The notes beneath the pieces were generated by a model. That model was not told where the DNA came from. It did not search any database and saw only the letters and a program-made list of their open reading frames with translations. The position numbers were made by a program, and so were the translations under genes. Source: an uncultured Gammaproteobacteria bacterium (GTDB taxonomy: Bacteria; Patescibacteriota; Microgenomatia; Levybacterales; UBA12049). Taken from it: a stretch of DNA of 54,080 nt. This document shows positions 227 to 21,309 of this stretch, one piece after another; the stretch's first letter is position 1, and every line of letters starts with the position of its first letter. The stretch is taken from NCBI GenBank assembly GCA_964610465.1, contig CAZSWA010000009.1, positions 1-54,080 of the forward strand. The letters are read 5' to 3'.

Positions 227-587
227 TCGCAATTAGCTGTATGTCAAGAGAACATATTCGTCGTGAATTACAAAACTTGGCATGGAGAGCAAAGGACACA
301 ATTCAAAGACTTCAAAATGATGATTAAGAGGATTTGGCCAATATTGTGAAACAAGTTGACTTGCTTTCACAGATGCATCAAAGGCGGTTTTATATACTTC
401 ATCTAATATTATTTTCTCTTCAGAAGATATAAATTGATAATACTAACTTTTGTTAAGGCAAGCACTAGTGTCTCTACCATAAGATCAGCTATTTTATTTC
501 TTTTCATATTTCAGTTCATACATCATATTACCACAAGAGGTTAAAATTCAGAAGAGGCTAATAAGGTTTTCTGAAGCTAAATATTAG

Positions 588-623
588 GTGCTGGCACTGG
601 TTGACTTTGTCGGAACTTTTTAC
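588..623 (+). repeat. att-like half-site (P'-type arm), copy A
   Basis: gtGCtggcactggttgactttgtcgGAACtttttac. It resembles the inverted copies at 5962-5997 and 9152-9187, and GTGCTGG recurs at 10748-10754. Confidence 0.7.
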
Positions 624-707
624 AAAAATAATTTGCAGCAAAGTTTTAGTGATAAGTAACACACTTTAGTATTGACTCTAAAGTCATCTTTTGTATACAG
701 TTAATAT

Positions 708-1454
708 ATGCGGAAAATATTTCTCTTTATTTTGTCTTTAACAATCTTATATTTTTTATTAGCAAATAACATCAACACGTTTGCTTTAGCTTCTCAAAGA
801 GTACCAATAATAACTTATCATTACATCCGTGATTACAATAATGCACAAGACCCAATAGGTATCAGGCTTTCAGTATCTCCCGCTATTTTTGACAAACAAA
901 TGAATTATCTTACATCCCATGGATATACGCCTATTACTCTTGATATGCTCTATGGCATATGGAATGGTCAAGCTCAATCTCCAACAAAACCAGTAGTATT
1001 AACCTTTGATGATGGATATATTGATTTTTACGCTAATGCCTATCCAATTTTAAAAAAATATAATTTCCATGCAGTTTCTTTTGTAGTAACAGGCTTTGTG
1101 GGAAAACCTGCCTATCTTTCCTGGAGCAATATTAAAGAAATGCAGTCATCTAGTCTAATTTCATTTGAAGCACATACAGTAACTCATGCGTATTTACCAA
1201 GATTATCGTATGCAAATATGTTGAATGAGCTACTGCAGAGTAAAACAACACTCCAATCTCAAACAGGTGTGGTTATTAATTTTATTGCCTATCCATATGG
1301 TGCCTCTAATGGGACAGTGCAAAATGCTGCTGCAAAAGCAGGGTTTGTTGGAGGACTTGGAACGTGGGGAGGATATGCGTCGTATAAGAGTATGAACATG
1401 CCACGTTTTTATGCAAAAAACTCATTACAAAGTATTTCTTCACTATTACCTTAA
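708..1454 (+). CDS. Secreted polysaccharide deacetylase (CE4/NodB-like)
   Basis: N-terminal hydrophobic signal; motifs PIITYHYI, LTFDDGY, HTVTH, AYPYG. Confidence 0.92.
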   Translation: MRKIFLFILSLTILYFLLANNINTFALASQRVPIITYHYIRDYNNAQDPIGIRLSVSPAIFDKQMNYLTSHGYTPITLDMLYGIWNGQAQSPTKPVVLTFDDGYIDFYANAYPILKKYNFHAVSFVVTGFVGKPAYLSWSNIKEMQSSSLISFEAHTVTHAYLPRLSYANMLNELLQSKTTLQSQTGVVINFIAYPYGASNGTVQNAAAKAGFVGGLGTWGGYASYKSMNMPRFYAKNSLQSISSLLP

Positions 1455-1489
1455 TACCCTTTAGGGAAAATTTATTTTCAAAGTTATTG

Positions 1490-3514
1490 TTAATTACAAG
1501 CGTGTGTATAAGCATCTAACTTTCTGTTCTTCAATATTCCACTGAACTGTAGTTGTTTTGCTTGTGGACAAAACTTATCTGTTGTCATACCTGTATCTGT
1601 ATATTCTGATGCAAAGACAGGTTTATCACTATATATAAATGGTGTCATGTCACTACACCAGCCCTGTTGAAAACAATCTTCGGTAATTGCAAAATCAAAA
1701 TAGGGAAGTAAGTCATGTACTTGCTCACTATCGTTTTTCAGTCCAATAAGAAGCCCTCGCTTGTGTGCTTCTTGAGAAACCCACTTGTTAAAAGTAAGTT
1801 GGTCGTCATAGGTGAGCGAGAATCCTGTATCTTCCTGGTATCCATGGATATTATCTGGCTCAACAGCGTCAAATCCTTTCTGTTGGCACATATCTAATCT
1901 TTTTTGCAAAATAGGTCCAATAATACTTAACTGCCGAATATCTAGCCATTTTTCTCCAGACCAATTAGTGTAGTCTTTGCCAATAACGCTTTGAGGAAAT
2001 TGACTCGCATCACCTCTCCAATTTTCCCACGAACCCATACTTATGTAGCAAATAACCTTACTTCCTTTTGCATGCAAGGTATTAACTACAGCCATATCAT
2101 TTTTCTCGTAATCTATATCAAATACTTTAGCATCAACTGACGTGTCTACATCACCATCAAGCTGCCATTGCCAAGAAGAACCAATAAGACTACTCCAATT
2201 GGTTTGACTAGTTGGAGAGATTATTGGAGAAATTGAAGGAGTGTTTGCCATTTGTTTATTGCCAAAAATTTGTAGCACATCATTATCATAGGTAATGTGT
2301 CCATCTTGATGCGTTACTCCAAGTCCAAAACAATCATCATATCCCCACAAAGTCCAGCCAATATGATTTTGTTCAAATATATATTTTACGTCTTTTAACC
2401 ACTGAAGTTTAGATTGTCTTGGTGTTTGTTTGCAATACACACCAAATTCACCAACCCAAATAGGTACATTGTTGTTTTTCTTTGACCAGTCAACTGCTCT
2501 TTGAATAAATTTTGCAAGTGTTTCTTTGTTCCATCCTTGGTCACAGTATCCTTGTACTTCATCTCGAGCATTATCGGTAGTTACTTTTGCAAGTACTTGT
2601 TCACAATTTGATGGGTTTTCAGGATACTCTAAGTTTGCAATAGAAGGATATGAATCTCCGCCCCAATCAGCACCCTGATGCGTAAACGCCATTGGTTCAT
2701 AGAAATGGAAAGAATAGATAATATTTTTATCTGTTGATGGTTTTACATTTTCTAACCCTTCAATGCCTCCCCAATTTGCTCCGATTGCAATGATGGTATT
2801 GTCTGGTGCTTGCTGTCTTACTGTTTGAATAAGTTGATTTTGCAACTTCAGCCACTCTTGTTCTTTGCCATCAAAGACAGGTTCATTCAAGAGTTCAAAG
2901 TAAACATTGTTTGTATCAAATTTGGTAAGGTGATTTGAAAAATTTCTCCAGAAAACTAAAAAATCTTGGGCATTCTTCTGATTCTCAAATGTTTTTTGTT
3001 CGTCATGAACATCGACAACAACAGCTATATGATGAGAAAGAATACGTTCAATTGCTTTATCAATAAATGGAAGCATGTGCGTGTTGATTTTTGTCAATGT
3101 AGTTGCGTCAAAAATATATTGAGGAGCAATAGATAAACGAACATGAGTAAAACCATTGTTTTTAATCAAGCTTAAATCATCATCAGTAATATAATTTGCA
3201 AAGTACTTGTCACTCTCATCAAGAGGGAACCGAAACCAGAGTGAAATATCAACACCTCTTTGCAATTTATTTACTCCTGAAGAAACATCTGTAATTTCTT
3301 TTTTATTTATTGTAGAAACATGTTTCATGTTATTTATGTCTGTATATTGGAAGATATAAAAAAATATTGTCATAATTAGAAATAGTAAAAATAAGCTGAT
3401 TAGGCTTAAAATAACAAAAAATTTCTTTTTTTTACTACCTAGAGTGATAGATTCTTTAGAAATAGCGTAGGTATTTTGTGCATTAGGTAATTTGGTAGAT
3501 TCTTTTATCTTCAT
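1490..3514 (-). CDS. Membrane-anchored two-domain glycoside hydrolase (GH5 + GH114-like)
   Basis: TM helix; GH5 motifs HVRL, ELLNEP, SFHFYEP, WVGEFG; Pro/Ser linker; C-terminal WQWQL, VICYISMGSWENWRGDA, GFDAVEPDN, GLKND, ASEY typical of endo-alpha-1,4-galactosaminidase-like GH114. Confidence 0.88.
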   Translation of the reverse strand: MKIKESTKLPNAQNTYAISKESITLGSKKKKFFVILSLISLFLLFLIMTIFFYIFQYTDINNMKHVSTINKKEITDVSSGVNKLQRGVDISLWFRFPLDESDKYFANYITDDDLSLIKNNGFTHVRLSIAPQYIFDATTLTKINTHMLPFIDKAIERILSHHIAVVVDVHDEQKTFENQKNAQDFLVFWRNFSNHLTKFDTNNVYFELLNEPVFDGKEQEWLKLQNQLIQTVRQQAPDNTIIAIGANWGGIEGLENVKPSTDKNIIYSFHFYEPMAFTHQGADWGGDSYPSIANLEYPENPSNCEQVLAKVTTDNARDEVQGYCDQGWNKETLAKFIQRAVDWSKKNNNVPIWVGEFGVYCKQTPRQSKLQWLKDVKYIFEQNHIGWTLWGYDDCFGLGVTHQDGHITYDNDVLQIFGNKQMANTPSISPIISPTSQTNWSSLIGSSWQWQLDGDVDTSVDAKVFDIDYEKNDMAVVNTLHAKGSKVICYISMGSWENWRGDASQFPQSVIGKDYTNWSGEKWLDIRQLSIIGPILQKRLDMCQQKGFDAVEPDNIHGYQEDTGFSLTYDDQLTFNKWVSQEAHKRGLLIGLKNDSEQVHDLLPYFDFAITEDCFQQGWCSDMTPFIYSDKPVFASEYTDTGMTTDKFCPQAKQLQFSGILKNRKLDAYTHACN

Positions 3515-3649
3515 GTCTTTAGTGTGAAATGTAGATGAAGCAAAGTCAACATATACTTGAATTCGTTAGATGAATTTCGAACACAAACAGCTTCTAGAAT
3601 TGCTAAAATATCCAGAACTTATTCACCAACAGTTATCCAAATTCTTAAG

Positions 3650-3940
3650 TTATCGAGTTAGGTTATTATAAATTCTGTTAGCTTCAGTAATGGTCTGATT
3701 AAGTTGGGTTTGTGGATTATTTCTAAAGTTAATAATGTTGTCTTCATTATAGTTAGCCTGTCGATAAAGTATATTTTTAAATAGTTGATTTAATATTTCT
3801 AAAAAATTGCTTTTACCCACACCATTTGGACCAATAAGTATGTTAAGGTTTTTATCAAATGTTATTTTCTGTGCTCTATTTATGTCGTTTTTATCTTCAA
3901 AACTTAATATGTTGGATACTTGGATATAGTTTATTTTCAT
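3650..3940 (-). pseudogene. Truncated ABC/SMC-type ATPase (N-terminal fragment)
   Basis: MKINYIQVSNILSF...NILIGPNGVGKSNFLE (Walker A). Only 96 aa, with no Walker B. Confidence 0.75.
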
Positions 3941-4015
3941 TTTAATTGCTTGCTAGCAATAATAGCACTTTTAAGATGGAATTAGTAGAATAATCAATTC
4001 GAATTGTTTTTGATT

Positions 4016-4627
4016 TTATGATTCCAGTGGGCTTGTTTCTATTCTCCTTTTAGCTTTAAATTTCCAAAAGTAAATAAAAGCAACAAGAGCAACATCACCA
4101 ATAAGACCATAGAATGGTCGTACATAAAGAATGCTCAAGGGTTTTCCAATAAGGGTAAGAATAGTAAATACATAAGCTACTACTGCTACTGTCCATGGGA
4201 GTGGGTCTTCTGAATTAGGTTCTGCTTTAATTTTAAGGATAGTCATGGTTGTTGCAGCAAGGTCAATGATAAGGGTAAGCCAAATGGCAGTAGCATTACT
4301 TTTGGTTATATACCAAATACCTATCGTATAGAGAGTGAAGACAAAGAGCAATCTATCCCATCTAGAGCTATCCCGTATGCCATATTTTAGAGAAAGCAGA
4401 AAAATAATAAGACTTCCTACAAAAAAGGTAAGAGAAATAAGCACGGAAGCTCTACCTCCAGCAAAGTACTGAGAAAAGAAGACAATGCCATTCATAATGA
4501 CAAAAACTAACCAACTCAATTGATGAGGCTTTGTTCGTTTCTTCAAAATGGCTTGAATATATGGAACAGTACAATAAATTGCTAAAGCTGTTGAAAGAAA
4601 TGCAGAGACGCTAATAACTAAGTTCAT
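4016..4627 (-). CDS. Integral membrane protein (PQ-loop-like)
   Basis: About 6-7 hydrophobic segments; PYI..ILK..TKP...SW motif and a second KxxPxSE...W repeat. Confidence 0.7.
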   Translation of the reverse strand: MNLVISVSAFLSTALAIYCTVPYIQAILKKRTKPHQLSWLVFVIMNGIVFFSQYFAGGRASVLISLTFFVGSLIIFLLSLKYGIRDSSRWDRLLFVFTLYTIGIWYITKSNATAIWLTLIIDLAATTMTILKIKAEPNSEDPLPWTVAVVAYVFTILTLIGKPLSILYVRPFYGLIGDVALVAFIYFWKFKAKRRIETSPLES

Positions 4628-4688
4628 AAGCCTATTGTAGCATAGGGATAAACTTCTCTATGGTTTCTACATAGGGCAGCTTTATATA

Positions 4689-5921
4689 TCAAATTATATC
4701 AATTGTATTACCCATCTTTCTAATTTTGTCTCCCATCCTGTATATGATAACTGCCAAAAGTAATCCAGCAAACATTAGTGCAACCATACCAATAATAATT
4801 TCATTGATTAATCCTTTTGCTGTCATATACCCAACTACAGGAGTACCAATGACATACGCAATAGACTCAAGAAAAGAAGCAGCAGAAAGAGTTGTAGCTC
4901 GATGATTCGGATCTATAGCTTTATTTATTTGAGTACTAAGCATTGGTATGTTCACATAAGTTGCAATTTGAAGAATAGTAAGACCGACAAGAGATACTAT
5001 AAGTAAGCTCCCTAAATTTACTCCAATACCAATAGTGCAGATAAGACCTAAAACAAAAATTGTGCCCGGAACGAAAAGTTTTGATGCATATTTTCTCACT
5101 AGAAACAAAGCAAATATGGTAAAAACTAATGCCAAAGATATTGCTGCAGAAATAGAATTAATAGGAAATCCTGCGTGTTGGTATAAAATTGGTCGTAGAA
5201 TTCCTGCTGTAAATACAGAGTATGAGAGTCCTTGAACAAGTAAGTACATTGGCACAATCCAAGCTATTTTGAGTTTAAAGATTTCTTGCACTCCAGATTT
5301 TAATTTGTAGAAGTATGCCTTTATCTCATCTGCTGCTTCAGGTTTTGGTTGAAATCTATCAATAACAGCAAGTTTATATAGAGGTATTAACATAAGGAGA
5401 AAAGTTATTCCTCGAAATAAAAAGGGTAATCTATCAAAATGTGCATAGGCTATACCTCCAATAAATACTGATATTATGAAAGATACTCTAGCAATAATAT
5501 TGTTATTTGTAGTAACTTTATGCCATAAATCCTCTTTTCCATGACTCTTTAAATAGTCATACATCATTGCGTCATCGGCACCAGTTTGAAAAGCAGTTCC
5601 AATGTAATACAGCAAGTCACCTAAAAAAATCATCACCCCAGTTGTTGCCAATCCCCACAGAAAAAAGCCTAGGCCATTGAGAATCACTCCGAGAATTACC
5701 ATGTTTCTTCTACCAAATTTATCTGCCAATGCTCCTGTAGGAATATTTGCCAACATTCCTATACCAAATGTTATGGCTTCAATAACCCCAAAAGTACTAA
5801 TACTAATAAATTTTTCACTAAAAAAAACCAATATTCCAGTAGCGAACCAAGTACCAACAAGAGAATAGTATATGTAATAAAGTCGTATTTGTTTGTTAAT
5901 GTCAGTGACCATTAGAAGCAT
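4689..5921 (-). CDS. MFS transporter
   Basis: 12-TM pattern; MFS motif A GALADKFGRR; C-terminal RATTLS. Confidence 0.92.
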   Translation of the reverse strand: MLLMVTDINKQIRLYYIYYSLVGTWFATGILVFFSEKFISISTFGVIEAITFGIGMLANIPTGALADKFGRRNMVILGVILNGLGFFLWGLATTGVMIFLGDLLYYIGTAFQTGADDAMMYDYLKSHGKEDLWHKVTTNNNIIARVSFIISVFIGGIAYAHFDRLPFLFRGITFLLMLIPLYKLAVIDRFQPKPEAADEIKAYFYKLKSGVQEIFKLKIAWIVPMYLLVQGLSYSVFTAGILRPILYQHAGFPINSISAAISLALVFTIFALFLVRKYASKLFVPGTIFVLGLICTIGIGVNLGSLLIVSLVGLTILQIATYVNIPMLSTQINKAIDPNHRATTLSAASFLESIAYVIGTPVVGYMTAKGLINEIIIGMVALMFAGLLLAVIIYRMGDKIRKMGNTIDII

Positions 5922-5961
5922 TATCTCATGAAATCAAGCAAGGTATAAAGCAGAATTTTGA

Positions 5962-5997
5962 CTATAAAAAGTTCCTACATAGTTCAAAAGAGCCAGC
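5962..5997 (-). repeat. att-like half-site, copy B (inverted)
   Basis: Minus strand reads GCtggctcttttgaactatgtagGAACtttttatag, nearly identical to 9152-9187. Confidence 0.75.
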
Positions 5998-6014
5998 TAC
6001 AGTCGTCCATAATC

Positions 6015-6047
6015 CATAGTCTGATTGGACTATGTGAGAACTTTTGG
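6015..6047 (+). repeat. att-like half-site, degenerate copy C
   Basis: ttggactatgtgaGAACtttt is an inverted match to aaaaGTTCctacatagttcaa at 5967-5987. The GC core is absent. Confidence 0.6.
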
Positions 6048-6066
6048 TATACTTTAGCTAAGCTCC

Positions 6067-6366
6067 ATGCAAAATACAATTCCAAAAGCATTTATTGCAC
6101 TTTTCTTTCTTCTAATCATTTTTGTATGGTCTATAACAGTTTTTCAAAAACAAAAATCCAAATTCTCTCTCATGCAACTTTCTGGTTCAGTATTGTTACT
6201 CTTTGTTGCGCTGTTTCATAGCTTTGAAGAATTTCACTTATTTACTTTTATGCAGTGGGGACAACCGCACAGTATTGGACATTATCTTGACTTCTTCAGT
6301 GCAATCCTTGGCGTGTTGTTTTTCTTAGTTGGAATAATATCTCCTTTGTTTGTTAAGCGAAAATAA
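6067..6366 (+). CDS. Small membrane protein (3 TM)
   Basis: Hydrophobic ORF with H..E....F..MQWG.PHS.GHYLD; TATACT just upstream of the ATG. Confidence 0.75.
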   Translation: MQNTIPKAFIALFFLLIIFVWSITVFQKQKSKFSLMQLSGSVLLLFVALFHSFEEFHLFTFMQWGQPHSIGHYLDFFSAILGVLFFLVGIISPLFVKRK

Positions 6367-6526
6367 AGGTTTAACACGTTTACATTTTCCAGGTATGATT
6401 AATCTCAAAAATTTGCATAGGTGGAAATCTAGATGAGCTAATTATAGCCTAATAATTGTTGTTTTACGAGGTATATGAATTTGAGTTAGTAGAATTTAGG
6501 AGTCTTCCAATTATTCCCGTTACTAT

Positions 6527-7177
6527 TTATATTCTATTTAAGAGTTTATAGCCAATGATAGCCAGTGCTTCGTGAAGAAAGTCCCTATTCGTGAGATTGT
6601 TTTTATCTTGTTCCCAACAAGGGCTATTACTAGCAGGTGATACCGAGTACGTATAATGTAATTTTGATGCTATCAGTTCTGCTCTAGCAATTTGGTAGGG
6701 TTCAGTAACTATGATAACCGAATGCAATCCAGCTTGATTTATTACTTTTTGAGAAAATAAAAAGTTCTCATATGTTGAGGTTGATTTATTTTCCATTAAA
6801 ATAGCTGTTAAAGGAACACCAGCTTTAGTAGCGATATTTTTCATAGTTTCAGCTTCATTTGCGCCATCTTCTTTATCGGTTCCTCCTGACATAAGTATTT
6901 TTGGAGCATAGTGGTCTTTATATAGAGAAACAGCTTGGTCTACTCTGGCAATAAGACAAGGATTTAAATGACGCTTGAGGACAAAGCCCTTTTTTTTGCA
7001 AATGGGACCATAACAGGAAGTACCACCATAAGCAGCACCACCCAAGACTAAGATAACATCTGATTTAACTTTTGTATCTTGTTCTGCCATTTTGTCAACA
7101 TAAAATAACAGTGAAAAAAATAAAAGTAGAGATGATACTGCAATTATCGCAAGCAAAATGAGTAGTTTTTTCCTCAT
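6527..7177 (-). CDS. YdcF/DUF218 (SanA/ElyC-like) family protein
   Basis: N-terminal TM; motifs DVILVLGG, ILMSGG, EAETM, ENKSTSTYEN, IIVT..YQ..RA. Confidence 0.9.
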   Translation of the reverse strand: MRKKLLILLAIIAVSSLLLFFSLLFYVDKMAEQDTKVKSDVILVLGGAAYGGTSCYGPICKKKGFVLKRHLNPCLIARVDQAVSLYKDHYAPKILMSGGTDKEDGANEAETMKNIATKAGVPLTAILMENKSTSTYENFLFSQKVINQAGLHSVIIVTEPYQIARAELIASKLHYTYSVSPASNSPCWEQDKNNLTNRDFLHEALAIIGYKLLNRI

Positions 7178-7307
7178 CTGAAGTTCTATTGTAAATTGAA
7201 ATTATTGAAGATACAAGAGTATGTAGACGTGTATACATAGAAGATACGAAAATACTAAAAAAAGGTATTTCTACCTTCTTTTAGCTGAGATAACAAGAAA
7301 CTTATTG

Positions 7308-7916
7308 TTACTTTGTTCCTGTTGGTTTTACTTTTCTTGCAGGCTGTGAGTTATCTCGAATAGTGGTAGCAGTTACAGTCTTGAGTGTTCTATCCCATAG
7401 ACCGTCTACTTTCACTTTGTCATTTACAACTATGCTTGATAAAGCAAGTGTCATGCCTTTCCTATCAACAATTTTTGTTGTAGAAGTTGTACTAACTGTT
7501 TGCTGACCTCTATTCATTGTTTGTAAAACAAACCCATTACTAGTTAACGAGCTCACAGTACCAACAAAGGTATCATTCTTTTCTTGAATTGACCCGTCAC
7601 GAATGAGTTTTGCAAGAACGGTAGTTTTGCTCGTATCTGTCCATGTACCAGCAACATTAATATGGTCTCCAACAGATACTTGATTAAGAGATGATTGTGC
7701 GCCAAATCGTCTCACAATCTTTGTACTATTATCTGTAGTAATGGTATAACTATGATTTCTATAGCTGACAGTAAGTGAAGGAGCGCTGACTGCGGTTACT
7801 TTGGCACCTGTCATATGCGCTTCGTTATTTGCTGCATAACTTGTAGATACTACGCCTACGCCAAGCATTACAAAAACAAAGACAAAAAAGCTAAGTATTT
7901 TTGTAAAATTTCTCAT
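7308..7916 (-). CDS. Secreted protein with two beta-rich repeats (DUF5666-like)
   Basis: Signal peptide; two repeats of G.V..vs.....T..T...TKIV.R.....L..v.V.D.v.V.G.W; SD GGAGGTG upstream. Confidence 0.75.
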   Translation of the reverse strand: MRNFTKILSFFVFVFVMLGVGVVSTSYAANNEAHMTGAKVTAVSAPSLTVSYRNHSYTITTDNSTKIVRRFGAQSSLNQVSVGDHINVAGTWTDTSKTTVLAKLIRDGSIQEKNDTFVGTVSSLTSNGFVLQTMNRGQQTVSTTSTTKIVDRKGMTLALSSIVVNDKVKVDGLWDRTLKTVTATTIRDNSQPARKVKPTGTK

Positions 7917-8022
7917 CTCATCACCTCCTTTCGGTATCTTTTATAGTAAAACAGAACAATAATCTTAGCAAGCACATCAATAATAATTATGTGTATTTAA
8001 GAGCAATTACGGTGAAAAATGT

Positions 8023-8574
8023 CTATCTTAAACCTAAGAGAAAAAATCCAATACCAAAAATTGCTACTAAAACAGATATATACCAAAATGATTTTCGTCT
8101 AAGAAGTGCACTCATTGCAGAAAGCGCAATTGCAATTTGAAAGAAAGTAACTGAGAGTGCTTCATTATGATGCTTTTCAAGTAACTTATCAGATTCTTTA
8201 TTTTCCTCTGCTGCTTGTTTCTCAAAGTCTTGTGCTTGTTTTTGAATAGCATTTTGTTCTTTAGTATATTTTGTAATGTCAGATTGTAATGTTGTATCTT
8301 TTGATTGTTGGAAGAACGCTTCTGCAAGGTTTTTCTTTATTCCTTTTGCCTGATAATAATTCCATTGGTCTGAAGCTTTTGTTTGATACAATATTGCATT
8401 ATTTTTATGAAGTACAGCTTCATTAGAATAGCTTCCAGACAGCAGTGAGGCAATTGCAGCAAAAACAGCTATTAATGCAGTAGTAATTGCTAAATATTTA
8501 TTCCAGCTTCTTGCATGTTCAGTCACTTCTTCAAGCTTTTCTTTCGTTTCTTGTACGATACTCTCTTCATCCAT
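8023..8574 (-). CDS. DUF4337-like membrane protein
   Basis: AITTALIAVFAAI, ASDQWNYYQAKGIK and FQIAIALSA motifs. Confidence 0.8.
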   Translation of the reverse strand: MDEESIVQETKEKLEEVTEHARSWNKYLAITTALIAVFAAIASLLSGSYSNEAVLHKNNAILYQTKASDQWNYYQAKGIKKNLAEAFFQQSKDTTLQSDITKYTKEQNAIQKQAQDFEKQAAEENKESDKLLEKHHNEALSVTFFQIAIALSAMSALLRRKSFWYISVLVAIFGIGFFLLGLR

Positions 8575-8587
8575 AATAGTAATTGCA

Positions 8588-9022
8588 TTATTTTTTCTTC
8601 TCTAATATTTCAAGAATTTTATCTTGCTGCTCATTGATTTTATATATCTCAGCAGTTAACGTGTGAATTGCCATAAGTGTATCATGGTCATGCTCGGCTC
8701 GAGCATCACTTGCTGCTGCTTGTACATTCTGACCAACAATAATTATTGGAAGTAGTACTAACTGAAGAAATGTTTGAGCAATCCAGGCCACGATAATAAT
8801 TGGGTCATGTGATTTAATGGCTGCAGGTAGTGATATTAATGCTAAAATGGCAAATACATATGCACACCACATTGAACCAACTATTTTTGTAATCAGTACT
8901 GCAAGAAATGTGTTAATTCTTCCTACAGGACTATCTCCATGCACGTTCTTTTGCACATGTTTATTTAAGACTAGTTTGTGCTTATGAGTACGTGCTTTTG
9001 TTAATTCATTACTAGATGTCAT
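8588..9022 (-). CDS. DUF1003-like membrane protein
   Basis: VGSMWCAY, WIAQTFLQLVLLPIIIVGQN; C-terminal coiled coil. Confidence 0.75.
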   Translation of the reverse strand: MTSSNELTKARTHKHKLVLNKHVQKNVHGDSPVGRINTFLAVLITKIVGSMWCAYVFAILALISLPAAIKSHDPIIIVAWIAQTFLQLVLLPIIIVGQNVQAAASDARAEHDHDTLMAIHTLTAEIYKINEQQDKILEILEKKK

Positions 9023-9151
9023 AGTTTAGCTTGCATTTTAACAAATGGATGGGATAGATTCAAGTTAATATTGGGGTTTGAAAGTATTAATAGTGGTTAA
9101 TAAAATATAAATTAGAAAGAATATTTATTCTATCAAGCATATCTATATTCT

Positions 9152-9187
9152 CTATAAAAAGTTCCCACATAGTTCAAGATAGCCAGC
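9152..9187 (-). repeat. att-like half-site, copy D (inverted)
   Basis: Minus strand reads GCtggctatcttgaactatgtggGAACtttttatag, immediately upstream of LSR1. Confidence 0.75.
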
Positions 9188-9229
9188 AAGCTTAGGTTTG
9201 AAACCTGTTGGGCTGACCATCTTGACTGT

Positions 9230-10804
9230 TTGCATATAATCCATAACAATGGTAGCGTGACACAAGATGGTGATGCAATCAGTATTAATAGAATCAGCTC
9301 TAAGCAACAAGATGAAGGCTACTCACTTCCTCAGCAAGCCAAATTAAACAAAGAAACAGCTGCAAGAGATGGCAGACGGATAATAAAAGAGTTCAACATT
9401 ATTGAGTCTGCAAAAGCAAGCGAAAAACGAGATGATTTCAATGAAGTAATTGAGTACCTCAAAAAGAACGACAAAGTACAGTTTGCTTACATTGAAAAAC
9501 CAGATAGATTAACCAGAAACCTCAAAGACATTGTGCTCACATATGACCTTGTCAATAACTATGACAAAACCTTTGTGTTCTCACGAGATAACTTTATCTT
9601 AAGCAAAAGCTCAAACTCTCATGCAAAGTTCCAGTTTGATATTAAAGCAATCCTTGCCAAAAACTACATTGATAACCTCTCAGATGAGGTGAAAAAAGGA
9701 CAACGTGGAATGCTTGAGGAAGGTAAATGGCCTGGTGGTTCAACACCCACAGGATACATCAAAGTAAACAAACTACTAGTCCCAGATGCAGAGCGAGCAC
9801 CATTTATCAAAAAAGCATTTGTGTACTATGCGTCTGGCAAGTATTCACTCAAAACTGTCAAAAAAGCACTAGATAAAGAAGGCTTCAGGACACTCAATGG
9901 TAAACAGTTGACTAAAAGTAATTATCATCAAATTCTGAACAACCCAATCTACTATGGCGTCATTCGCTGGAACAAGAAACTCTATCAAGGCAGTTTTGAA
10001 CCACTTATTGACCAAGCACTATTTGAGCGAGCACAAGCAATGCTTATTCGTACTAAAAACGGTGAGACAATCCCAACCTATAGCAAACACTTATTCACGT
10101 ACCAGCGGGCTCTCAGATGTGGTGAGTGTAATTGTCTAATAACAGGGGAAATGAGAACTAAGAAAAACAAAGGCAATGGCAAGGTACACAAATGGATTTA
10201 CTATCACTGCACACACTTTAAGAACTGCTCACAATGGGGCGTAGTCAGAGAAGAACGAATTGATGATGACATTGTCAAACTACTTGAACGAATACATATG
10301 GATGCAGAAACTACTGAACACCTGAAAAACAGACTTAAAGAAAGCCACTATGAACATGTTCAGTACAGAGAGAAAGTTGTCGGAGAGATTAACATCAAGC
10401 TCTTTCGAGTGCAAAACAATCTTGACCAAATTTATACTGACAAACTGGATAAGATTATTGATGAAGAGACATTCAAACGAAAAAGAGCTGAATTTCTCAA
10501 AGAACAGGCTTGTTTAACAGAGGAAATAAAGAAACATCACATAGCTGATAAGAAGTACGTTGACTTTGGCTGTCTTGTGTTAGATGTTGCTCATGTAGCT
10601 TCAAAAATCTACAAGGTTAGAAACCAAGAGCAAAAACGTCAACTGCTAAATTTCATATTTTCAAACCTCTATCTGCAGGATAAAACAGTGCGTAATAGCT
10701 TCAGAGAGATATATGTGGCACTACTGGAGTATCAGAGAACAAGGGATGTGCTGGGGATACCGGTCAAGAACCCTTTAGTCGTTATAGCCCCTGACTCACC
10801 CTGA
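9230..10804 (+). CDS. Large serine recombinase (LSR1); true start probably GTG at 9257
   Basis: Resolvase-type catalytic region RISSKQQ...SL..Q and DRLTRN; recombinase domain (PTGY, ILNNPIYYG, EPLID..LF); zinc ribbon CGEC..YYHC..C; coiled coil. Confidence 0.95.
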   Translation: MHIIHNNGSVTQDGDAISINRISSKQQDEGYSLPQQAKLNKETAARDGRRIIKEFNIIESAKASEKRDDFNEVIEYLKKNDKVQFAYIEKPDRLTRNLKDIVLTYDLVNNYDKTFVFSRDNFILSKSSNSHAKFQFDIKAILAKNYIDNLSDEVKKGQRGMLEEGKWPGGSTPTGYIKVNKLLVPDAERAPFIKKAFVYYASGKYSLKTVKKALDKEGFRTLNGKQLTKSNYHQILNNPIYYGVIRWNKKLYQGSFEPLIDQALFERAQAMLIRTKNGETIPTYSKHLFTYQRALRCGECNCLITGEMRTKKNKGNGKVHKWIYYHCTHFKNCSQWGVVREERIDDDIVKLLERIHMDAETTEHLKNRLKESHYEHVQYREKVVGEINIKLFRVQNNLDQIYTDKLDKIIDEETFKRKRAEFLKEQACLTEEIKKHHIADKKYVDFGCLVLDVAHVASKIYKVRNQEQKRQLLNFIFSNLYLQDKTVRNSFREIYVALLEYQRTRDVLGIPVKNPLVVIAPDSP

Positions 10805-10868
10805 AGCTAAATAAGACAAATGAGACAGTGAAACAACATATTCTACATGCCTATATTATAACCTATAG

Positions 10869-11579
10869 TTATATTGCGGACAACTCATCTATTTCTATTT
10901 TTACATCTTTCTCTTCTCGGATTAATCTTTTTAAGAAATTAATAACTTCTACTTTATTCTCCATATTAACAAGCATAGGAATGTCCATGTGTAAAGTTAA
11001 GTATATAATTCTTTCCACTGATGTGTCTCCTGGCAAGTATGTCAATAATTGTTCTCTTGCAGATTTTACTGCACTTGTGATTTTATTTTTTAATCCTTCT
11101 GGCATTCCCTGAGTAACTTCTCGAGTTACTAATTCTTCGTCTTCTGTTTTAAGCCTTCTTGTGTTTTCCAAGATGTACTTTCTCTCGTCATCTGAAAAAC
11201 CGACATTTTTTGATTCAAGCAAACATATTGTCCCTCTGGGATTTTTTGCTTCAATATCAGGAGTCCTTGCATGATTATCTTCAGGGATGAATTTAACGTT
11301 TGTATAACCCGATTCAACGAGGTAATTAAAACCCCTCACCTCAGCCATTGTTTCAAAAAATTGGGACCAGCCTCGCAATGGATGTTTCGTTACTCGGCCA
11401 ATTAATTTCTGCTTAACGATTTCCCAACTTGCTGTATCTAATTTTTGAAGGGCAATTTCATAGGGTTCGAATATATTGGGTACCTGCTTAATCGCATTTG
11501 GAAGTTGAACTCTAATATCATCAGCCGGAGCATGAGCGTCTGCCGTTGAACAAAATTCCAATAGTCGTGTAAATTCCAT
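10869..11579 (-). CDS. Putative PD-(D/E)xK nuclease-like protein
   Basis: E..G...L...G...V.FIPE....TPDIEA...LLESKNV pattern. Start moved to the ATG at 11579 to remove overlap with the divergent gene. Confidence 0.6.
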   Translation of the reverse strand: MEFTRLLEFCSTADAHAPADDIRVQLPNAIKQVPNIFEPYEIALQKLDTASWEIVKQKLIGRVTKHPLRGWSQFFETMAEVRGFNYLVESGYTNVKFIPEDNHARTPDIEAKNPRGTICLLESKNVGFSDDERKYILENTRRLKTEDEELVTREVTQGMPEGLKNKITSAVKSAREQLLTYLPGDTSVERIIYLTLHMDIPMLVNMENKVEVINFLKRLIREEKDVKIEIDELSAI

Positions 11580-11640
11580 AGTGCCATTATACTCCAAACC
11601 TAAAAACATTTTCGGGAGAAGCGTATAATAATACTTAAAT

Positions 11641-12303
11641 ATGGAAAACAGTAAAAAATGTATTTTCTGTGGTAAACAAGCGGATACGCGAGAGCATATT
11701 CCGGCAAAAAACTTTTTTAAAGATATACCTAATAAATCTTTAATCACTGTTCCTACCTGTAGAATGTGCAACGTCAGCTTTCAGAAGGATGAAGACTTTT
11801 TCAGGCAATTTTATGTCTCCATGTTACAAGACAGATCTGCCGAAGCAAAAAAGCTCATGGATGGTGAAATAACTCGGTCTATACTCCGAGCGCCTGCACT
11901 CGGACAGCAGATGTTTAGCCAAATGAAATTAGTGGATGTTTATACAAAAGCAGGGGCATATAAAGGGAAAATGACCATGTATTCCGTAAGTGATTCGGAT
12001 AGGACAAGAATTGATCGTGTTGTTGATAAAATAGTCAAAGGTCTTTTTTATCATGAATTTGGACAAGTCATACCTGAGGATTGGGTTATAAAGAATATTT
12101 GGATTACTCCCAAAGTTGAAAAAGACCAGGGTCTTGATGAAATGGCCAAAAAGCCTTTATGGCGCGTTATTAAGGAAGACACTTTTGCTTATTGGGTAAA
12201 TTACGTGCCGGAAACTTTCCAATCGGTTTGGATATTGGATTTTTTTAAAATTCCACTCTTCTATGTCTTGGTGTTAGATAAAAAAACAGCGCATCAGGAA
12301 TAA
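11641..12303 (+). CDS. HNH-type endonuclease domain protein
   Basis: CIFCG...TREHIPAKNFF...TVPTCRMCN N-terminal zinc/HNH pattern. Confidence 0.75.
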   Translation: MENSKKCIFCGKQADTREHIPAKNFFKDIPNKSLITVPTCRMCNVSFQKDEDFFRQFYVSMLQDRSAEAKKLMDGEITRSILRAPALGQQMFSQMKLVDVYTKAGAYKGKMTMYSVSDSDRTRIDRVVDKIVKGLFYHEFGQVIPEDWVIKNIWITPKVEKDQGLDEMAKKPLWRVIKEDTFAYWVNYVPETFQSVWILDFFKIPLFYVLVLDKKTAHQE

Positions 12304-12348
12304 AAAAGAATCACTTCTTTATTTTATTACCTCTGTTATTAATCATTC

Positions 12349-14058
12349 TCATTTTTCTGTCTTGGGTAAACTTGTGATTTCCTCAGGCACCTCTCCTATT
12401 TGCACTACATGTCCAGATATGTCTAACGTATTAATTGATCTACTTACTTCCTTTTTCGTCCTAGGATATTTCTTAAGAAATTCAGGATTTTCACTTTCTA
12501 AGTAGACCGTACAATAAGTTCCTCCCTGTCCATTTTTGAGATCCCTTCCATGAAGCAATCCTTCTCGACGCAGTTTTTTTGCTGAAGCTGGATAGACGTT
12601 AAACTTATCTTTTAATTGTGAATTTGAAAACCACTCTCCTTCATTATAAAACAAGTGCTTCTTTAATAGAGGAATAACCCCTTCTTTTATATTCTTCCAA
12701 CAGTTGTTGCAATACAAAGCATCTGGTGTCCACCATGTTTCATTTCCATAATGACCTTCATAGCATATTCCGCAGTTATAATACCCATCTGTGTCCAGGA
12801 AAAATCCCTCTGGCTCTTTTTCGAGTCTTCGTTTTCTCGTTGCATCTATTCCTTCCTGTTCTCCTCTTATTTCCGCAAGTTTTACCCAAGTGCTCGCGCT
12901 ATATTTCATGCGCTTTTCAGGGTCTATTGGTTTTTGTGGTTCTTTTTTCTTTTCGTAAAGCTTTATCAAATCTTCCTCTCGTTCGTATCCTTTGAGTCTT
13001 CCCGACAGAAAACCCAATCGATAACTTACTCCATCAACCAATCGCCAGTTGGTGTTTTCTAGTGTACTTTTAATCAGCTTCTCAAGTGTATTTGTGCTGA
13101 TGTTTTCTCTTCGGGAAGTATCAGCATCCTGCAAAGTAAATGGAGTAAAAATAAATTGTCCAATTTCAGGCGAGCTAAAGGTAAGCTTTGTGTAGTTTGC
13201 TTTTTCAAGGACTTCTCCTAAAAGTTTTTCAAGTTCAACAATGGTTAGTTTCTTCAGCTTGCTTACTTGCTGATAAGCAGTATTGTCGTACTTTTGTCTT
13301 GCTTCCTGATGTATTTGATCAGCAAACTCCATTGCTTCCAGTTCAAATAAATACTTTTCTCCTTCTTCATCTGATAGGCAAAAAACTGTTCTATACTTTT
13401 CCAATAGCTTTTTATCTTCCTCCTCCTTTTTCTTTTGCTCCTCCTCCCATTTCTTATGTTCTGCATCGCTTTTGGTAAGATCAAGGATATCTTTTTTTGA
13501 ATAGCCGCAACCTTTGCATTTGTAAAGTGTAGTTATAATCTTTCCTTTCCTACTACCTTTTACATCCAGCTCTTTATTGCATTTGGGACAAAGGTCAGGT
13601 TCTGAAACACGAATTTCACCGTCATCGTACACCCATTGCTGCTTTTTACATTCCGAACATTTAAATAGGAACATCATACGCACAATTGGACTATCAAAGG
13701 TGTAATCAAGATGTTTTGAGAAATTAAAAAACATTGAACCTTTGCAAAGAGGACATTTTATACCTACCGGTACAGGAGTATAATCCTTTTTATCCTGCTT
13801 GAGCTTATCTTCATCCATCCACTTTTTGATTGTTTCTTTCTTGTTTTTATACTCCTGCGCTTGAGTGAACCATAAATGCCAGTACATAATTTTTGTAGTA
13901 TCACTATATTTGTCCTCTTTGGGCATATCTTTAAATTCTTCATTGGTTAAGCTTTTTTGATAGACGTCTTGGAACATTTCAATAACTTTAAGGCATGATC
14001 TTATTGTAGAAAGGTCGTAGCGGTCAATATAATGCTGTTCGTCATGAAGATATTGCAT
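12349..14058 (-). CDS. Hypothetical protein with multiple zinc ribbons
   Basis: CPLC, CSEC, CPKC, CKGC, CGIC and CNNC pairs; possible C-terminal HTH-like segment. Confidence 0.75.
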   Translation of the reverse strand: MQYLHDEQHYIDRYDLSTIRSCLKVIEMFQDVYQKSLTNEEFKDMPKEDKYSDTTKIMYWHLWFTQAQEYKNKKETIKKWMDEDKLKQDKKDYTPVPVGIKCPLCKGSMFFNFSKHLDYTFDSPIVRMMFLFKCSECKKQQWVYDDGEIRVSEPDLCPKCNKELDVKGSRKGKIITTLYKCKGCGYSKKDILDLTKSDAEHKKWEEEQKKKEEEDKKLLEKYRTVFCLSDEEGEKYLFELEAMEFADQIHQEARQKYDNTAYQQVSKLKKLTIVELEKLLGEVLEKANYTKLTFSSPEIGQFIFTPFTLQDADTSRRENISTNTLEKLIKSTLENTNWRLVDGVSYRLGFLSGRLKGYEREEDLIKLYEKKKEPQKPIDPEKRMKYSASTWVKLAEIRGEQEGIDATRKRRLEKEPEGFFLDTDGYYNCGICYEGHYGNETWWTPDALYCNNCWKNIKEGVIPLLKKHLFYNEGEWFSNSQLKDKFNVYPASAKKLRREGLLHGRDLKNGQGGTYCTVYLESENPEFLKKYPRTKKEVSRSINTLDISGHVVQIGEVPEEITSLPKTEK

Positions 14059-14070
14059 ATAACAAATCTT

Positions 14071-15846
14071 TTACTTTTTACCTAACCATTTATTCATTAT
14101 TTCAAAATATTCTGGATATTTAGAGACAACCTTCCTAAACGTTGCTTTAGTTTTTGGATTAACTGGCATCTTTGTAAGACAGTCTACAGCAACACTTATA
14201 TCTCCAATGCTAGTTATTCCATCTGGATAAATTAATAAATAATTCAACCATTGCAAAAACTCATCATAACCATTTTTATCATAAATCATTTTAAGTATTT
14301 TCCCGTTATAGTGATATGGCCACCAGCTTAACTGATAGAGATTATCTTTTGTCGCTGTTTGTTCTAAATACGGACGCTCCACCTGCAAAGATTTCTTCCA
14401 TAGATCAATACATTCTTCAAAATTTTTATCTATAAAATCAGATATAAAATAATACAAGTTAACCATGACATCATGGTCATAAGTTTGGGTTAATAATTTC
14501 ATGTATTTATATGAAATTTTGAATGTATCATCAAAATTTACACCCGGCTCTTTTGGTAAGTGCCAAAAAGACCAAGCAAATCCCGATTTGACCTCACTAG
14601 GATAACTTATTAAAACTTTTTCAAGCTGTTCTTTAAAATAAAAGTCATCAAAATTTTTTAATGACTCTAGTCTTTCTTTTGAAAATACATATTTTAAAGA
14701 TTCTGCATTAAATAGCTTTGAACGAAATTCCGCAAAGAAAATTAAAAGGTTTCGAGTTTCTTCTTTTTGGAATTTAGTTTTAATTTTCAATACTTCATAA
14801 TCACAAAGATAGGGAGGATTATGATTAATAGCTTCTTCATAGGAATACGCATAGGTAGGTATGCCATCTTCGCAGTTGAAAAGACTAAATGTATTATGCT
14901 CAACAGCATCTTTGGGTGTTGCAGTAAGACCTAATTGCAGAGCGTCAAAATAGTCAAAAATATTTTTGTAAACATTGTAGATCGATCTATGACTTTCATC
15001 TGCCACAATCATATCGAAAAAAAGAGGACTTAGTGGACAATCCTTATCCTCGATAATATTGAGCATTGTTGGATAGGTTGCAACATAAACTCTTCTATCT
15101 GTTACTATTTCACTTTCGCCAATTTTTGGCCAAACAGGCGCATTAGGAAGGTATTCTTTAAAAGCATCAAGAGCTTGATTGCGAAGAGCAATGCGATCAA
15201 CAAGAAATAGCACCTTTTGGACTCGATTGGTTCGCATCAAAACATCAGCCATTGAAACACAGGTTCGTGTCTTTCCCGTACCAGTTGCCATAACAAGAAG
15301 GGCTTTTCTCTTTCCTTTGTCAAAACTTTCAAAAACTGACCGAAGTGCCTCTATCTGATAAGGCCGCCCTGAGAGATCTCGGTTAATAAGCTCTTGAGAG
15401 ATAGGTTTCTCATTTTTTCTCAAGAAGAGAAGTCTTTCTAAATCCTTTTTTGTTGAGAAGCCATATACTTTTCGAGGTGGATATTTTTCTGTATCCCAAA
15501 AATAAATATCATTACCATTAGTGTAAAAAACAAATGGCATATCTCGGCCTGAGTTTTTTTGAATATTTTCAGCGTACTGCCTGGCTTGCTCTTGTCCGAT
15601 TCGTGCATCTTTTGATGTCTTTTTTGCCTCAACAACAGCTAATGGGTACCCATCGTCTCCAAGAAGTGCATAGTCTGCAAATTGGAAGCCTTGATATTCA
15701 TTCTCTGGCTCTTCAATGCCTTCTGGTAAACCTACCCAAATATCTAATTCTGATGTCACTTGAGCGGGATTATGTACATCCCAACCAGCTCTTAACAACC
15801 GTACATCAATTATCTCTTGCCGTGTTTTTGCTTCGTTAATATCCAT
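14071..15846 (-). pseudogene. hsdR: Type I restriction enzyme R subunit (N-terminal half) fused to an unrelated C-terminal fragment
   Basis: NEAKTRQEIID..L..AGW, ADYAL..LAVVEAKK, MATGTGKT, DESHRS, GLTATP. Helicase C-domain motifs are missing after about aa 362. Confidence 0.8.
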
Positions 15847-16110
15847 ATGATCATTTCTCAGCTATATTATAGCATTTGATAGCTTCAAATCGGTTAGAAG
15901 ATTCGTTCGAATCCGTGGCGAACGACCACATTGAGGAATTACGAACGCTAGCTTCAGTATCCAGTCTTTAAGGGCGTGAATGATGAGGGTACGGTTGCGA
16001 GGCTGCACGTGTTTGCTGCGGGCACTAGATGACATTAGAACCTCTTTAGCTTCAAAAAATTACAATTACATAACTTCCTTAATCTAAAATTGTGATATAC
16101 TTAAGTCTGT

Positions 16111-16359
16111 ATGTTGCCTCTTTTAATCTCTGGTTTATTACTGGCACTACTTATTGTCACCTTTATATTTCAGAATACATCGCCTGTTATCATGCATTTT
16201 TTGGCATGGCATTTTCAGGGGTCACTTGCCCTTCTTCTGTTTCTCACATTTATATTCGGAATCATTATCAGCTTATTGGTTGCTATACCATTGCTTTTTA
16301 GAGGAAGAAGAAAAAACCTTGTCACAAAAGAAAAAGCTGAAGATTTGTTGCACCACTAA
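16111..16359 (+). CDS. LapA/DUF1049-like small membrane protein
   Basis: F.FQNT.PV..HFL.W.F.GSLAL pattern between two TM helices. Confidence 0.8.
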   Translation: MLPLLISGLLLALLIVTFIFQNTSPVIMHFLAWHFQGSLALLLFLTFIFGIIISLLVAIPLLFRGRRKNLVTKEKAEDLLHH

Positions 16360-16367
16360 AGCTTTTC

Positions 16368-16721
16368 TTATACGTATTGTGCTACTCTTTCCAGCAACTT
16401 ATCCATATCAAATGGCTTTGTCATGTAATCATCTGCTCCTGCATCGTGAGCAATCTTCTCGGTATCTTGGTTTGCTGAAATCATGATAATAGGAATATGT
16501 TTTGTTGGTTTCTGACTCTTTAGATACCTACAAACATCTCGTCCATCCACACCTTTCATCCAAATATCTAAAAGTAGCAAGTCAGGTAAATAGTCACGAA
16601 CCATTTGCGCTGTATGCCCATTAGCCGTTGACTTAACTTCATATCCTGCATCTTCTAGCATCATTGTAAGTACAGCTACAATATCTTTATCATCATCAGC
16701 AACTACTATTTTTTTCTTCAT
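16368..16721 (-). CDS. Single-domain response regulator (CheY-like receiver)
   Basis: VADDD, LLLDIWM, PIIMISA, GADDYMTKPF. Confidence 0.95.
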   Translation of the reverse strand: MKKKIVVADDDKDIVAVLTMMLEDAGYEVKSTANGHTAQMVRDYLPDLLLLDIWMKGVDGRDVCRYLKSQKPTKHIPIIMISANQDTEKIAHDAGADDYMTKPFDMDKLLERVAQYV

Positions 16722-16775
16722 ACTATTTCTATCCTCTCGAAACAGGTCTTATTAGTGTATCACGGAAAATACAAT

Positions 16776-20054: not shown

Positions 20055-20259
20055 ACTCTCCTTTTTTATGATTTGGTTTAACCATTGTTAATAGGTCATC
20101 TTTTGTAAACCGCCAATCCCCTCGTATTCCAACTTTCAAACCAGGGAGTGCTTTAGAGCGTGCCCACCTGCGGATAGTACCGACATTTACTCCTAAAAAT
20201 TCAGCAGCTTGTTGTACGTTGAGAAGTTGATTAGTTTTGGAATTAGTCTCCTTATTCAT
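20038..20259 (-). CDS. Excisionase/MerR-like helix-turn-helix protein (HTH_17-like)
   Basis: LLNVQQAAEFLGVNVGTIRRWA...RGDWRF; overlaps the start of the CheB-CheR kinase. Confidence 0.88.
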   Translation of the reverse strand: MNKETNSKTNQLLNVQQAAEFLGVNVGTIRRWARSKALPGLKVGIRGDWRFTKDDLLTMVKPNHKKGEYVKSK

Positions 20260-20278
20260 ATTGGTCTATACTAGTACA

Positions 20279-20312
20279 TCTTACTACTTATTATATAAGA
20301 AAGATAGTAAGA
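20279..20312. promoter_or_regulatory. Inverted repeat (candidate operator) between divergent HTH genes
   Basis: TCTTACTA (20279-86) ... TAGTAAGA (20305-12). Confidence 0.4.
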
Positions 20313-20376
20313 CTACAGTAATAAACACACAAGGAGTTGGTCGAGAATGCATACTCCTTGTGTCTATATTGTGAGA

Positions 20377-20604
20377 ATGGGTAAACCCATAACTCACAGA
20401 CGAATACTTCTAAAATTTGGAGAAAGATTACAAACGGTGAGAAAATCAAAAGGAATAACTCAAGAAGAATTGGCTGTAAAACTATATATGCACAAAAACT
20501 ACATTGGACTCATTGAAAGAGGTGAGAGAAATCCTACTATAAGAACACTTTATAAACTTGCGAAGGCTCTTAAAGTAAATGCTTCAGAATTATTACCTTT
20601 TTAA
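20377..20604 (+). CDS. XRE/Cro-C1 family transcriptional regulator
   Basis: FGERL..VRKSKGITQEELA...YIGLIERGERNPT...KLAKAL; start taken at the second Met. Confidence 0.92.
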   Translation: MGKPITHRRILLKFGERLQTVRKSKGITQEELAVKLYMHKNYIGLIERGERNPTIRTLYKLAKALKVNASELLPF

Positions 20605-20831
20605 TAAACTCCTTCACTGTCACATGTTCCCTTACAATGTTTCTACTCAGAGTAAAGGGGTGCATTTTTGCAAAAGTCCTTTTATATTTAGGTGGTAGTG
20701 GTGTATGTTTCCCTAGCAAAATAAGGTATAATATGCATGAATTTACGCATAAATAGTTATGGATAAATGATAGAAATATTGAGGAGTTTGAGCTTACAGT
20801 ACCTCATGTCTCTCTTTAAGAACAAGAAATT

Positions 20832-21281: not shown

Positions 21282-21309
21282 TTTCTCACAAAATAATATT
21301 AATATTACA

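Follow-up and report, generated by a model that had tools for sequence, protein, structure and literature searches.

Locus and recombinase gene

The window analysed here is the whole of contig C9 (CAZSWA010000009.1; 54,080 nucleotides (nt)) of a 1.36 Mb genome in 32 contigs, 97.65% complete, whose host is described as an uncultured soil bacterium. It carries a gene for a large serine recombinase, which we refer to as LSR1, together with copies of a short half-site (hereafter arm) that begin with the same GCTGG as a junction inside the LSR1 frame, and our subject is the predicted exchange of the last residues of the enzyme at that junction. The two features on which the argument turns are:

9257..10804, + strand: LSR1, large serine recombinase, 515 amino acids (aa) from a GTG at 9257; a TTG start at 9230 is also open
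10750..10754, + strand: GCTGG junction, with the crossover within GCTG and its exact dinucleotide not fixed

LSR1 matches the Pfam families Resolvase (PF00239, 2.1e-15, residues 19-167) and Recombinase (PF07508, 9.7e-17); its Zn_ribbon_recom match (PF13408, 2.8e-4) scores 21.7 bits, under the 25.3-bit cut-off, and four cysteines in this zinc-ribbon part are invariant in the homologue alignment. An R.SS..Q motif lines up with the invariant columns S10 and S11 of 13 aligned homologues, and the only domains present are those of serine recombinases, with no tyrosine recombinase fold. Judged from these domains LSR1 is an intact large serine recombinase, with recombination of attP with attB attachment (att) sites as its predicted activity. 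The names on its homologues are those of Microgenomates-type candidate phyla (Levyibacteriota, Roizmanbacteria, Daviesbacteria). The frame (9230/9257-10804) terminates in ...RDVLGIPVKNPLVVIAPDSP, and the catalytic, recombinase and zinc-ribbon domains all lie upstream of the approximately 18 last codons that would be exchanged.

Crossover point within the recombinase frame

The original prediction placed a crossover inside the LSR1 frame at 10750 and held that recombination there rewrites the C-terminus of the enzyme. G10750 closes a GTG codon and is followed by CTG; the letters common to this position and the half-sites are GCTGG only, plus a preceding GT at 590, a match which by itself is no better than chance, and the break point therefore rests on comparative evidence. 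All 38 close homologues (51-74% identical) are conserved through ..D(W/V/E)L and divergent beyond, the corresponding LSR1 residues past ...RDVL being encoded across the crossover, and in at least 18 of the 38 the tail is antisense tRNA sequence, such as ..DSNPNKRIQ.PLSYH. ARAGORN found a tRNA (eight Gln, one Asn) on the opposite strand, beginning at the junction codon, in 9 of 12 related genome loci; of the remaining three, one contig ends inside tRNA-like sequence and two loci have other tails. In an order-wide sample of 29 further loci, 19 have a tRNA (Gln, Asn, Ser, Trp or Ile) called where the recombinase stops, and in six more a T-loop-like GGATTCGAACC comes directly after the stop; a class-wide sample, made with a more distant query, gave such a tRNA in 13 of 23 loci. 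The same genome holds two further cases: the 3' end of a second recombinase, LSR2, overlaps tRNA-Gln(ttg) by 61 nt on the opposite strand, and a third large serine recombinase, LSR3 (L002, contig C18: 85-1845), extends into tRNA-Leu(gag) in antisense orientation. On contig C18 another tRNA-Leu, with anticodon cag, follows after 115 nt.

We accept 10750 as the break point because homologue conservation ends at that codon and a tRNA begins there in relatives, as the prediction had it. This combination, about 18 codons before the stop, is that of an in-frame att site of the class of Mx8 IntP and SSV Int, and a crossover within the recombinase's own frame is a trait of the whole lineage. With the crossover inside the frame recombination would therefore rewrite the C-terminus, a claim which extends across the family and to LSR2 and LSR3.

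The window also contains a 13-nt exact direct repeat, CTGAAGCTAAATA, at 573-585 and at 10802-10814, where it overlaps the LSR1 stop codon. We ruled this repeat out as the true crossover, since the homology that arms, and likewise relatives, have with each other is lost at GCTGG and not at the repeat.

Half-sites in the window

The half-sites and their flanks are arranged as follows:

573..589, + strand: left flank of site 590, a B-type half ("L" motif CTGAAGCTAAATA and 4 further nt), presumed to be native sequence at the tRNA-Gln 3' end
590..623, + strand: arm A1, a P'-type half-site; the tail frame 591-659 gives LALVDFVGTFYKNNLQQSFSDK*; proposed attL of element E1
5964..5997, - strand: arm A2, inverted; tail LALLNYVGTFYSQNSALYLA*
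6015..6056, + strand: weak arm-like copy facing A2, with 17 of 22 matches to the A2 reverse complement (nhmmer E 0.83)
9154..9187, - strand: arm A3, inverted, 70 nt upstream of the LSR1 start; tail LAILNYVGTFYREYRYA*

The 34-nt half-sites at 590 (+), 5997 (-) and 9187 (-) share sequence rightwards from GCTGG and none leftwards, and a 23-nt half-site pattern gave two exact matches compared with none in 100 shuffles. Read in the LSR1 frame, the three half-sites give open, homologous tails of the LALVDFVGTFY type, exactly the translations first proposed. The three-site list itself stands; the weaker fourth copy at about 6015-6056 and copies beyond the window had been missed. The pairing of 590 with 10750 for excision also holds up, these being a proper attL/attR pair in direct orientation, with a left flank of the kind found beside tRNA-Gln in relatives.

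The arm family in other genomes

A profile of the three window arms recovered nine further copies on contig C15, all on one strand (nhmmer). The arm pattern was present in 9 of 40 related genomes, with a reversed control giving no match, and a metagenome search gave at least 130 copies, counted in the 80 stretches listed of 105 that matched. The family comprises at least 137 distinct copies in Microgenomates-type genomes. Aligned with their flanks, the 137 arms carry 0.0-0.4 bit up to position -1, 1.2 bits at the G of GCTGG and 1.6-1.8 bits after it, falling off after +33, and the left flanks vary from arm to arm. The sharp GCTGG boundary and the many different left sequences mark the arms as right-hand half-sites and suggest site-specific recombination at that point.

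The motif in the left flank of 590 (of the GAAGCTAAA type) lies directly beside the tRNA-Gln 3' end in genome G011, with variants in several other relatives, and it occurs upstream of 29 of the 137 arms and downstream of none. Site 590, in which this tRNA-adjoining motif meets a P' arm, is therefore built like a canonical attL (native flank plus P' arm). Arms were found upstream of a recombinase on the same strand in six cases (C9-590, L013, L014, G004, G024, L131); those of L013 and L014 are beside tRNA-Gln, and that of G024 lies 16.4 kb upstream of its recombinase, which itself abuts tRNA-Gln. A peptide-motif scan added arm-like tails upstream on the recombinase strand in L011 and L015 and a second copy in L013. 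In L005 an arm-like copy at position 4832 (-), with tail LALLNSFQTYDW, lies in inverted orientation 5.2 kb before a close relative of LSR1 and resembles A2 and A3.

The variation within the arms follows the recombinase frame. Among the 137 copies the weak columns 6, 9, 12, 21 and 33 are wobble positions of that frame, 11 codons are open in 127 copies, and the tail lengths past these 11 conserved codons look random. Single changes from consensus in 28 arms comprised 55 synonymous and 49 non-synonymous changes where 27 synonymous were expected, an excess that was absent in the other two sense frames, although p-values overstate it because the arms are related by descent. Related C-terminal sequences (among them GWDDFRTLKW, LVDEFRTLNW and GWDDVGTYF) occur in about 12 of 120 database homologues 35-41% identical to LSR1, with no tRNA following. 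The half-site tails show what reads as codon-like conservation in the recombinase frame.

Arms also occur in arrays. Contig C15 (8941-28199) has nine minus-strand arms spaced by 0.6-5 kb, most of them immediately 3' of genes on the plus strand, which looks like a stack of recombinase-less units, and L043/L044 (G004:C22:26694-36284) has nine same-strand arms with one to four small genes between them. An inter-unit block of about 150 nt is conserved in G004:C22, with a TGCTATAAT box, a GGTTCGAATCC box and the L motif, and a recombinase followed by an arm of a second type (T4-like, see below) stands 9 kb past the last arm. In known contexts the arms are directed towards a tRNA-Gln gene. Three arms in G011 and three in G014 point at a tRNA-Gln 1.3-3.8 kb off with no recombinase between, and the tRNA-proximal junction of G011 resembles an unoccupied site, with the L motif adjoining the tRNA.

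A proposed stack of elements at tRNA-Gln

The present tail of LSR1 belongs to a different arm family and is followed by a second set of mobile-element genes:

10750..10830, + strand: T4 arm, of a second right-arm family; encodes the present LSR1 tail GIPVKNPLVVIAPDSP*; proposed left end (P') of element E2
10831..26841, no strand assigned: E2 body, with an HsdR/ResIII fragment, a CheB-CheR-PAS-kinase fusion, a small-terminase-like gene and a Prim-Pol/AAA_25 primase
26842..28488, + strand: LSR2, whose last 61 nt overlap tRNA-Gln on the other strand
28428..28499, - strand: tRNA-Gln(ttg), anchor of the island

The 80 nt of T4 are 82.5% identical to the sequence that follows the recombinase of G004, itself only 26% identical to LSR1, and in G111 and G093 left flanks of unrelated sequence give way to T4-like sequence at GCTGG, the G093 copy being 1.3 kb from a tRNA-Gln(ctg). 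T4 matches sequence after another recombinase and beside other left flanks, and we therefore regard it as a second right-arm family. Inside T4 lies the second copy of the 13-nt CTGAAGCTAAATA motif, a flank-type sequence, which the T4-like arms of G004 and G111 carry too. T4 (10750-10830) and the stretch to the right of 9187 resemble tRNA-Gln to the eye, but we rejected the idea that they are decayed copies of it, as 409 and 1814 of 2000 shuffles, respectively, reached their local-alignment scores.

Mobile-element genes and LSR2 lie between T4 and tRNA-Gln, and for this reason the interval is read as an integrated element, E2. The original prediction had missed the probable origin of the current tail as the end of this second element between LSR1 and tRNA-Gln. 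A parallel is provided by G407 (L222, G407:C3, reverse strand of 1-20000), where an inner recombinase has the arm-type tail LVENVRTSYVTSH and, 5 kb later, a second recombinase runs into tRNA-Asn; relatives of the inner recombinase sit directly at tRNA-Asn. These tandem recombinases are, from their arrangement, a clean example of stacking, and with the anatomy of T4 and E2 they make a stack at tRNA-Gln the simplest reading of the window.

Three frames in E1 and E2 have features of their own. The E2 fusion (16776-20054, - strand) is a 1092-aa CheB methylesterase-CheR methyltransferase-PAS-histidine kinase protein and an unusual cargo; at 14071-15846 (-) a 591-aa protein has an HsdR N-terminus, a ResIII helicase core and an unrelated C-terminal half, and looks like a gene fragment, as does a 96-aa frame at 3650-3940 (-) which corresponds only to the N-terminal P-loop part of an AAA/SMC-type ATPase. 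Positions 1-46 of the window belong to a repeat with which 10 contigs of this genome end. It is probably a multi-copy element at which the assembly broke off; an 852-nt contig covers this repeat at 270-500x, against 22-40x elsewhere in the sequencing runs.

Proposed mechanism

We consider it probable that recombinases of the LSR1 lineage read their last residues from the DNA across the GCTG crossover and that 590-28428 is a stacked island at tRNA-Gln. LSR1 would belong to a serine recombinase lineage of Microgenomates-type bacteria, within the candidate phyla radiation (CPR), in which the attachment-site crossover lies about 18 codons before the end of the frame. In the free circle the DNA across the crossover would be the other end of the element, a 34-nt P' arm, giving an 11-residue LALVDYVGTFY-type tail plus a few unconstrained residues; after integration at a tRNA 3' end (here tRNA-Gln) the tail would become the antisense of the tRNA; and after a further element stacks in, it would be supplied by the P' arm of the newcomer.

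Applied to the window, the order would be native flank / A1 (attL 590) - E1 - LSR1 / T4 (10750) - E2 - LSR2 / tRNA-Gln (28428), with E1 spanning 590-10749 and E2 spanning 10750-28427, each with its recombinase at the right end, and the present LSR1 tail would be the left end of E2. Either order of arrival of E1 and E2 fits this arrangement, and the stacking order is to be read accordingly as presumptive. If 590 recombined with 10750, a circle of 10.16 kb would be released and LSR1 would regain a LALVDFVGTFY... tail, A1 being the presumed partner of LSR1. A2 and A3 would be solo inverted copies within E1, which formally could invert 5998-10749 or 9188-10749 and produce the other two tails. The tail itself may influence LSR1 activity, conceivably its directionality or its stability as in the original prediction; the codon-like conservation of the arm tails is indirect evidence for such an effect. 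A fold model of the homologue P0050, which has a 34-residue native tail, reached a mean pLDDT (predicted local distance difference test) of 74.9 from an alignment of 13 sequences, with long helices at 352-441, disorder at 487-515 and three short tail helices at 516-551 (pLDDT 58-67); the modelled tail is compatible with a folded appendage, and the model is too weak to place its docking.

Several observations weigh against this account. Contig C15 has its nine arms with neither a recombinase nor a tRNA, and G014 has arms although no LSR1 homologue was found there. The genomes of the two closest LSR1 relatives (74% and 71%) gave no A-type arm at up to 3 mismatches, and among related loci with at least 4.8 kb of upstream flank an A-type arm was found in only 2 of 11 (nhmmer). 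A recombinase frame ran into an arm in none of the 130 metagenome copies among the matches listed (80 loci), the longest open stretch upstream of these arms being 106 codons and not recombinase-like, so that the junction expected of the free form is not observed for A-type arms. In L119/L123 a seeming fusion of a recombinase C-terminal fragment to an arm was discarded, the "LGSN" match being a translated GGATCGAACC box with no recombinase upstream. In viral contigs the arm pattern gave no matches and a single-protein scan for the free-form junction found nothing; an alignment scan returned eight loci, of which four were read, and the recombinase frames of three (L079, L080, L082) run into tRNA-like sequence, L079 and L080 reaching the contig end within it, with L081 hitting the contig end before the junction.

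Other points bear on the arms as sites and as coding sequence. Dyad symmetry was not significant in an ungapped, crude test, either between the LSR1 3' end, as reverse complement, and A1 (12/30 matches, shuffles 0.30) or with A2, A3 and T4 (best pair at most 13/30). A weaker synonymous excess (41 compared with 23 expected) appears in one antisense frame that shares the wobble positions, and the arm part GGAACTTTTT is invariant even at four-fold sites, which suggests that DNA-level recognition also constrains the arm. The cargo genes of E1 are ordinary-looking only.

Alternative explanations

The alternative that survives best, though we regard it as unlikely, is that the arms are the recombination sites of an integron-like platform accreting cassettes at tRNA-Gln, with a serine recombinase acting in trans and the in-frame tail a by-product of the DNA motif. 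The same-strand arrays with 0.6-5 kb spacing (nine arms on C15, nine on G004:C22, and three each in G011 and G014 at tRNA-Gln) would suit such a platform, as would the small genes and conserved block between the arms of G004:C22, the seemingly unoccupied junction of G011 and the invariance of GGAACTTTTT. Like integrons, the arrays line up short gene units with a conserved recombination site of constant orientation at the end of each; unlike integrons, they conserve the half-site alone, have no attC-like hairpin and are anchored at tRNA-Gln. No IntI-type enzyme was seen beside the arrays, in analyses that included no search aimed at IntI. Of the 137 arms only 29 have the L flank that a full cassette site would need, and arms do not generally have an inverted partner, the best inverted upstream match reaching 17/22 but being mostly 10-13, about that of a downstream control; these two results argue that the arrays are not made of integron-like full sites. 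The three-base periodicity of the arms, and two-fold codons with synonymous changes only, are hard to obtain from DNA recognition alone, and no cassette turned up at a second location or in circular form.

A programmed switch, in which LSR1 flips 9188-10749 or 5998-10749 and so toggles its own tail and orientation, seems to us very improbable. A2 and A3 are inverted relative to 10750, with A3 just 70 nt before the LSR1 start, the inverted copy of L005 stands likewise upstream of its recombinase, and GC as a central dinucleotide would be palindromic. A palindromic central dinucleotide, as in work on Bxb1 and phiC31, removes the polarity of recombination. No relative was seen with a flipped recombinase, however, and in each of four runs, all of one study and probably of the source sample, a single 28.4-kb contig covers 26-12000 without difference. 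These are assembled contigs rather than raw reads, and contigs drop rare variants, so the single arrangement is weak evidence, neither for nor against rare inversion or excision. Opposite strands were joined only in a 6.5-kb contig, which corresponds to the C15 copies (2-3 mismatches). Neither of the originally predicted inversions, with 5997 and with 9187, shows as a second arrangement in the contigs of these runs, where rare forms would be invisible.

Another idea, hardly credible to us, treats the arms as regulatory repeats of an ordinary kind (promoter or terminator modules) that match LSR1 at GCTGG by chance. In its favour, each C9 arm lies 36-120 nt upstream of a same-strand gene and has TTGAAC/TTGACT and TATA-like hexamers inside it, and the arms of C15 and G004 lie just 3' of opposite-strand genes. 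Against it, positions relative to genes are inconsistent between C9 and C15, the GCTGG boundary is sharp, the arms cluster at tRNA-Gln and upstream of same-strand recombinases, and their variation is codon-like.

Relation to known systems

The closest precedents for a recombinase whose tail is supplied across its own crossover are tyrosine recombinases. The integrase of Mx8 is reportedly the subject of Tojo 1996 and Magrini 1999, titles in the reference list of a review. For the tyrosine recombinase of myxophage Mx8 (IntP/IntX), PMC6070905 describes an attP that lies within int, a new 3' end of the gene upon integration, and an altered activity of the enzyme. On that description Mx8 resembles LSR1 in having an att site within the integrase frame and a 3' end renewed by integration; it differs in being a tyrosine recombinase of a single phage rather than a broad serine lineage, and LSR1 differs from it in having three or more alternative tails, one of them apparently from a stacked second element. 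The "suicidal" archaeal integrases of SSV type, also tyrosine recombinases, have the site within the frame and a gene changed on integration, according to PMC7253208; there the SSV gene is split and inactivated, whereas LSR1 would swap about 18 last codons with its domains intact.

The large serine integrases of phages are described as having their directionality set by a separate recombination directionality factor (RDF). RDFs share no common signature, and the lack of an apparent RDF gene next to LSR1, as noted in the original prediction, is doubtful for that reason. Those of phiC31, Bxb1, A118 and SPbeta resemble LSR1 in their domain set, in attP x attB -> attL + attR and in a recombinase gene at one end of the element; they differ in the separate RDF, and no in-frame att site is described for them in the portions of the literature searched. 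The LSR1 sites differ from phage-type att sites in that dyad symmetry was undetected (ungapped, crude test). No description of an in-frame att site in serine integrases, or of CPR serine recombinases at tRNA genes, was found in the literature searched; the passages of PMC10083194 on overlap and distance make no mention of in-frame sites, and its att-site tables might hold cases.

Classic tandem genomic islands at tRNA genes have tyrosine integrases and a repeated tRNA 3' part, according to PMC4383910. The 590-28428 stack is like them in placing several elements at one tRNA gene, and unlike them in having no significant tRNA-like repeat at its inner junctions. The principle is thus known for tyrosine integrases (Mx8, SSV), and the serine-integrase case appears to be a new variant of it, well supported as anatomy and hypothetical as mechanism.

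Implications

Many database "C-termini" of these recombinases are antisense tRNA, which has consequences for annotation, and att sites can be read directly from the point where protein conservation ends. The half-site arrays beside tRNA-Gln point to an unexplored collection of accessory genes in small-genome CPR bacteria. As a speculative extension, possible but doubtful, the tRNA-Gln 3' flank in this CPR lineage may be an accretion platform for whole elements and recombinase-less units, the 11-residue P'-arm tail may be needed for the integration-competent state, and the C-terminus may tell the enzyme which recombination state it is in, acting as an intrinsic directionality switch that would replace or complement an RDF. 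LSR1 offers four tail variants of one enzyme, each defined in sequence, and a C-terminus that changes with every recombination event would be a natural and testable alternative to a separate directionality factor.

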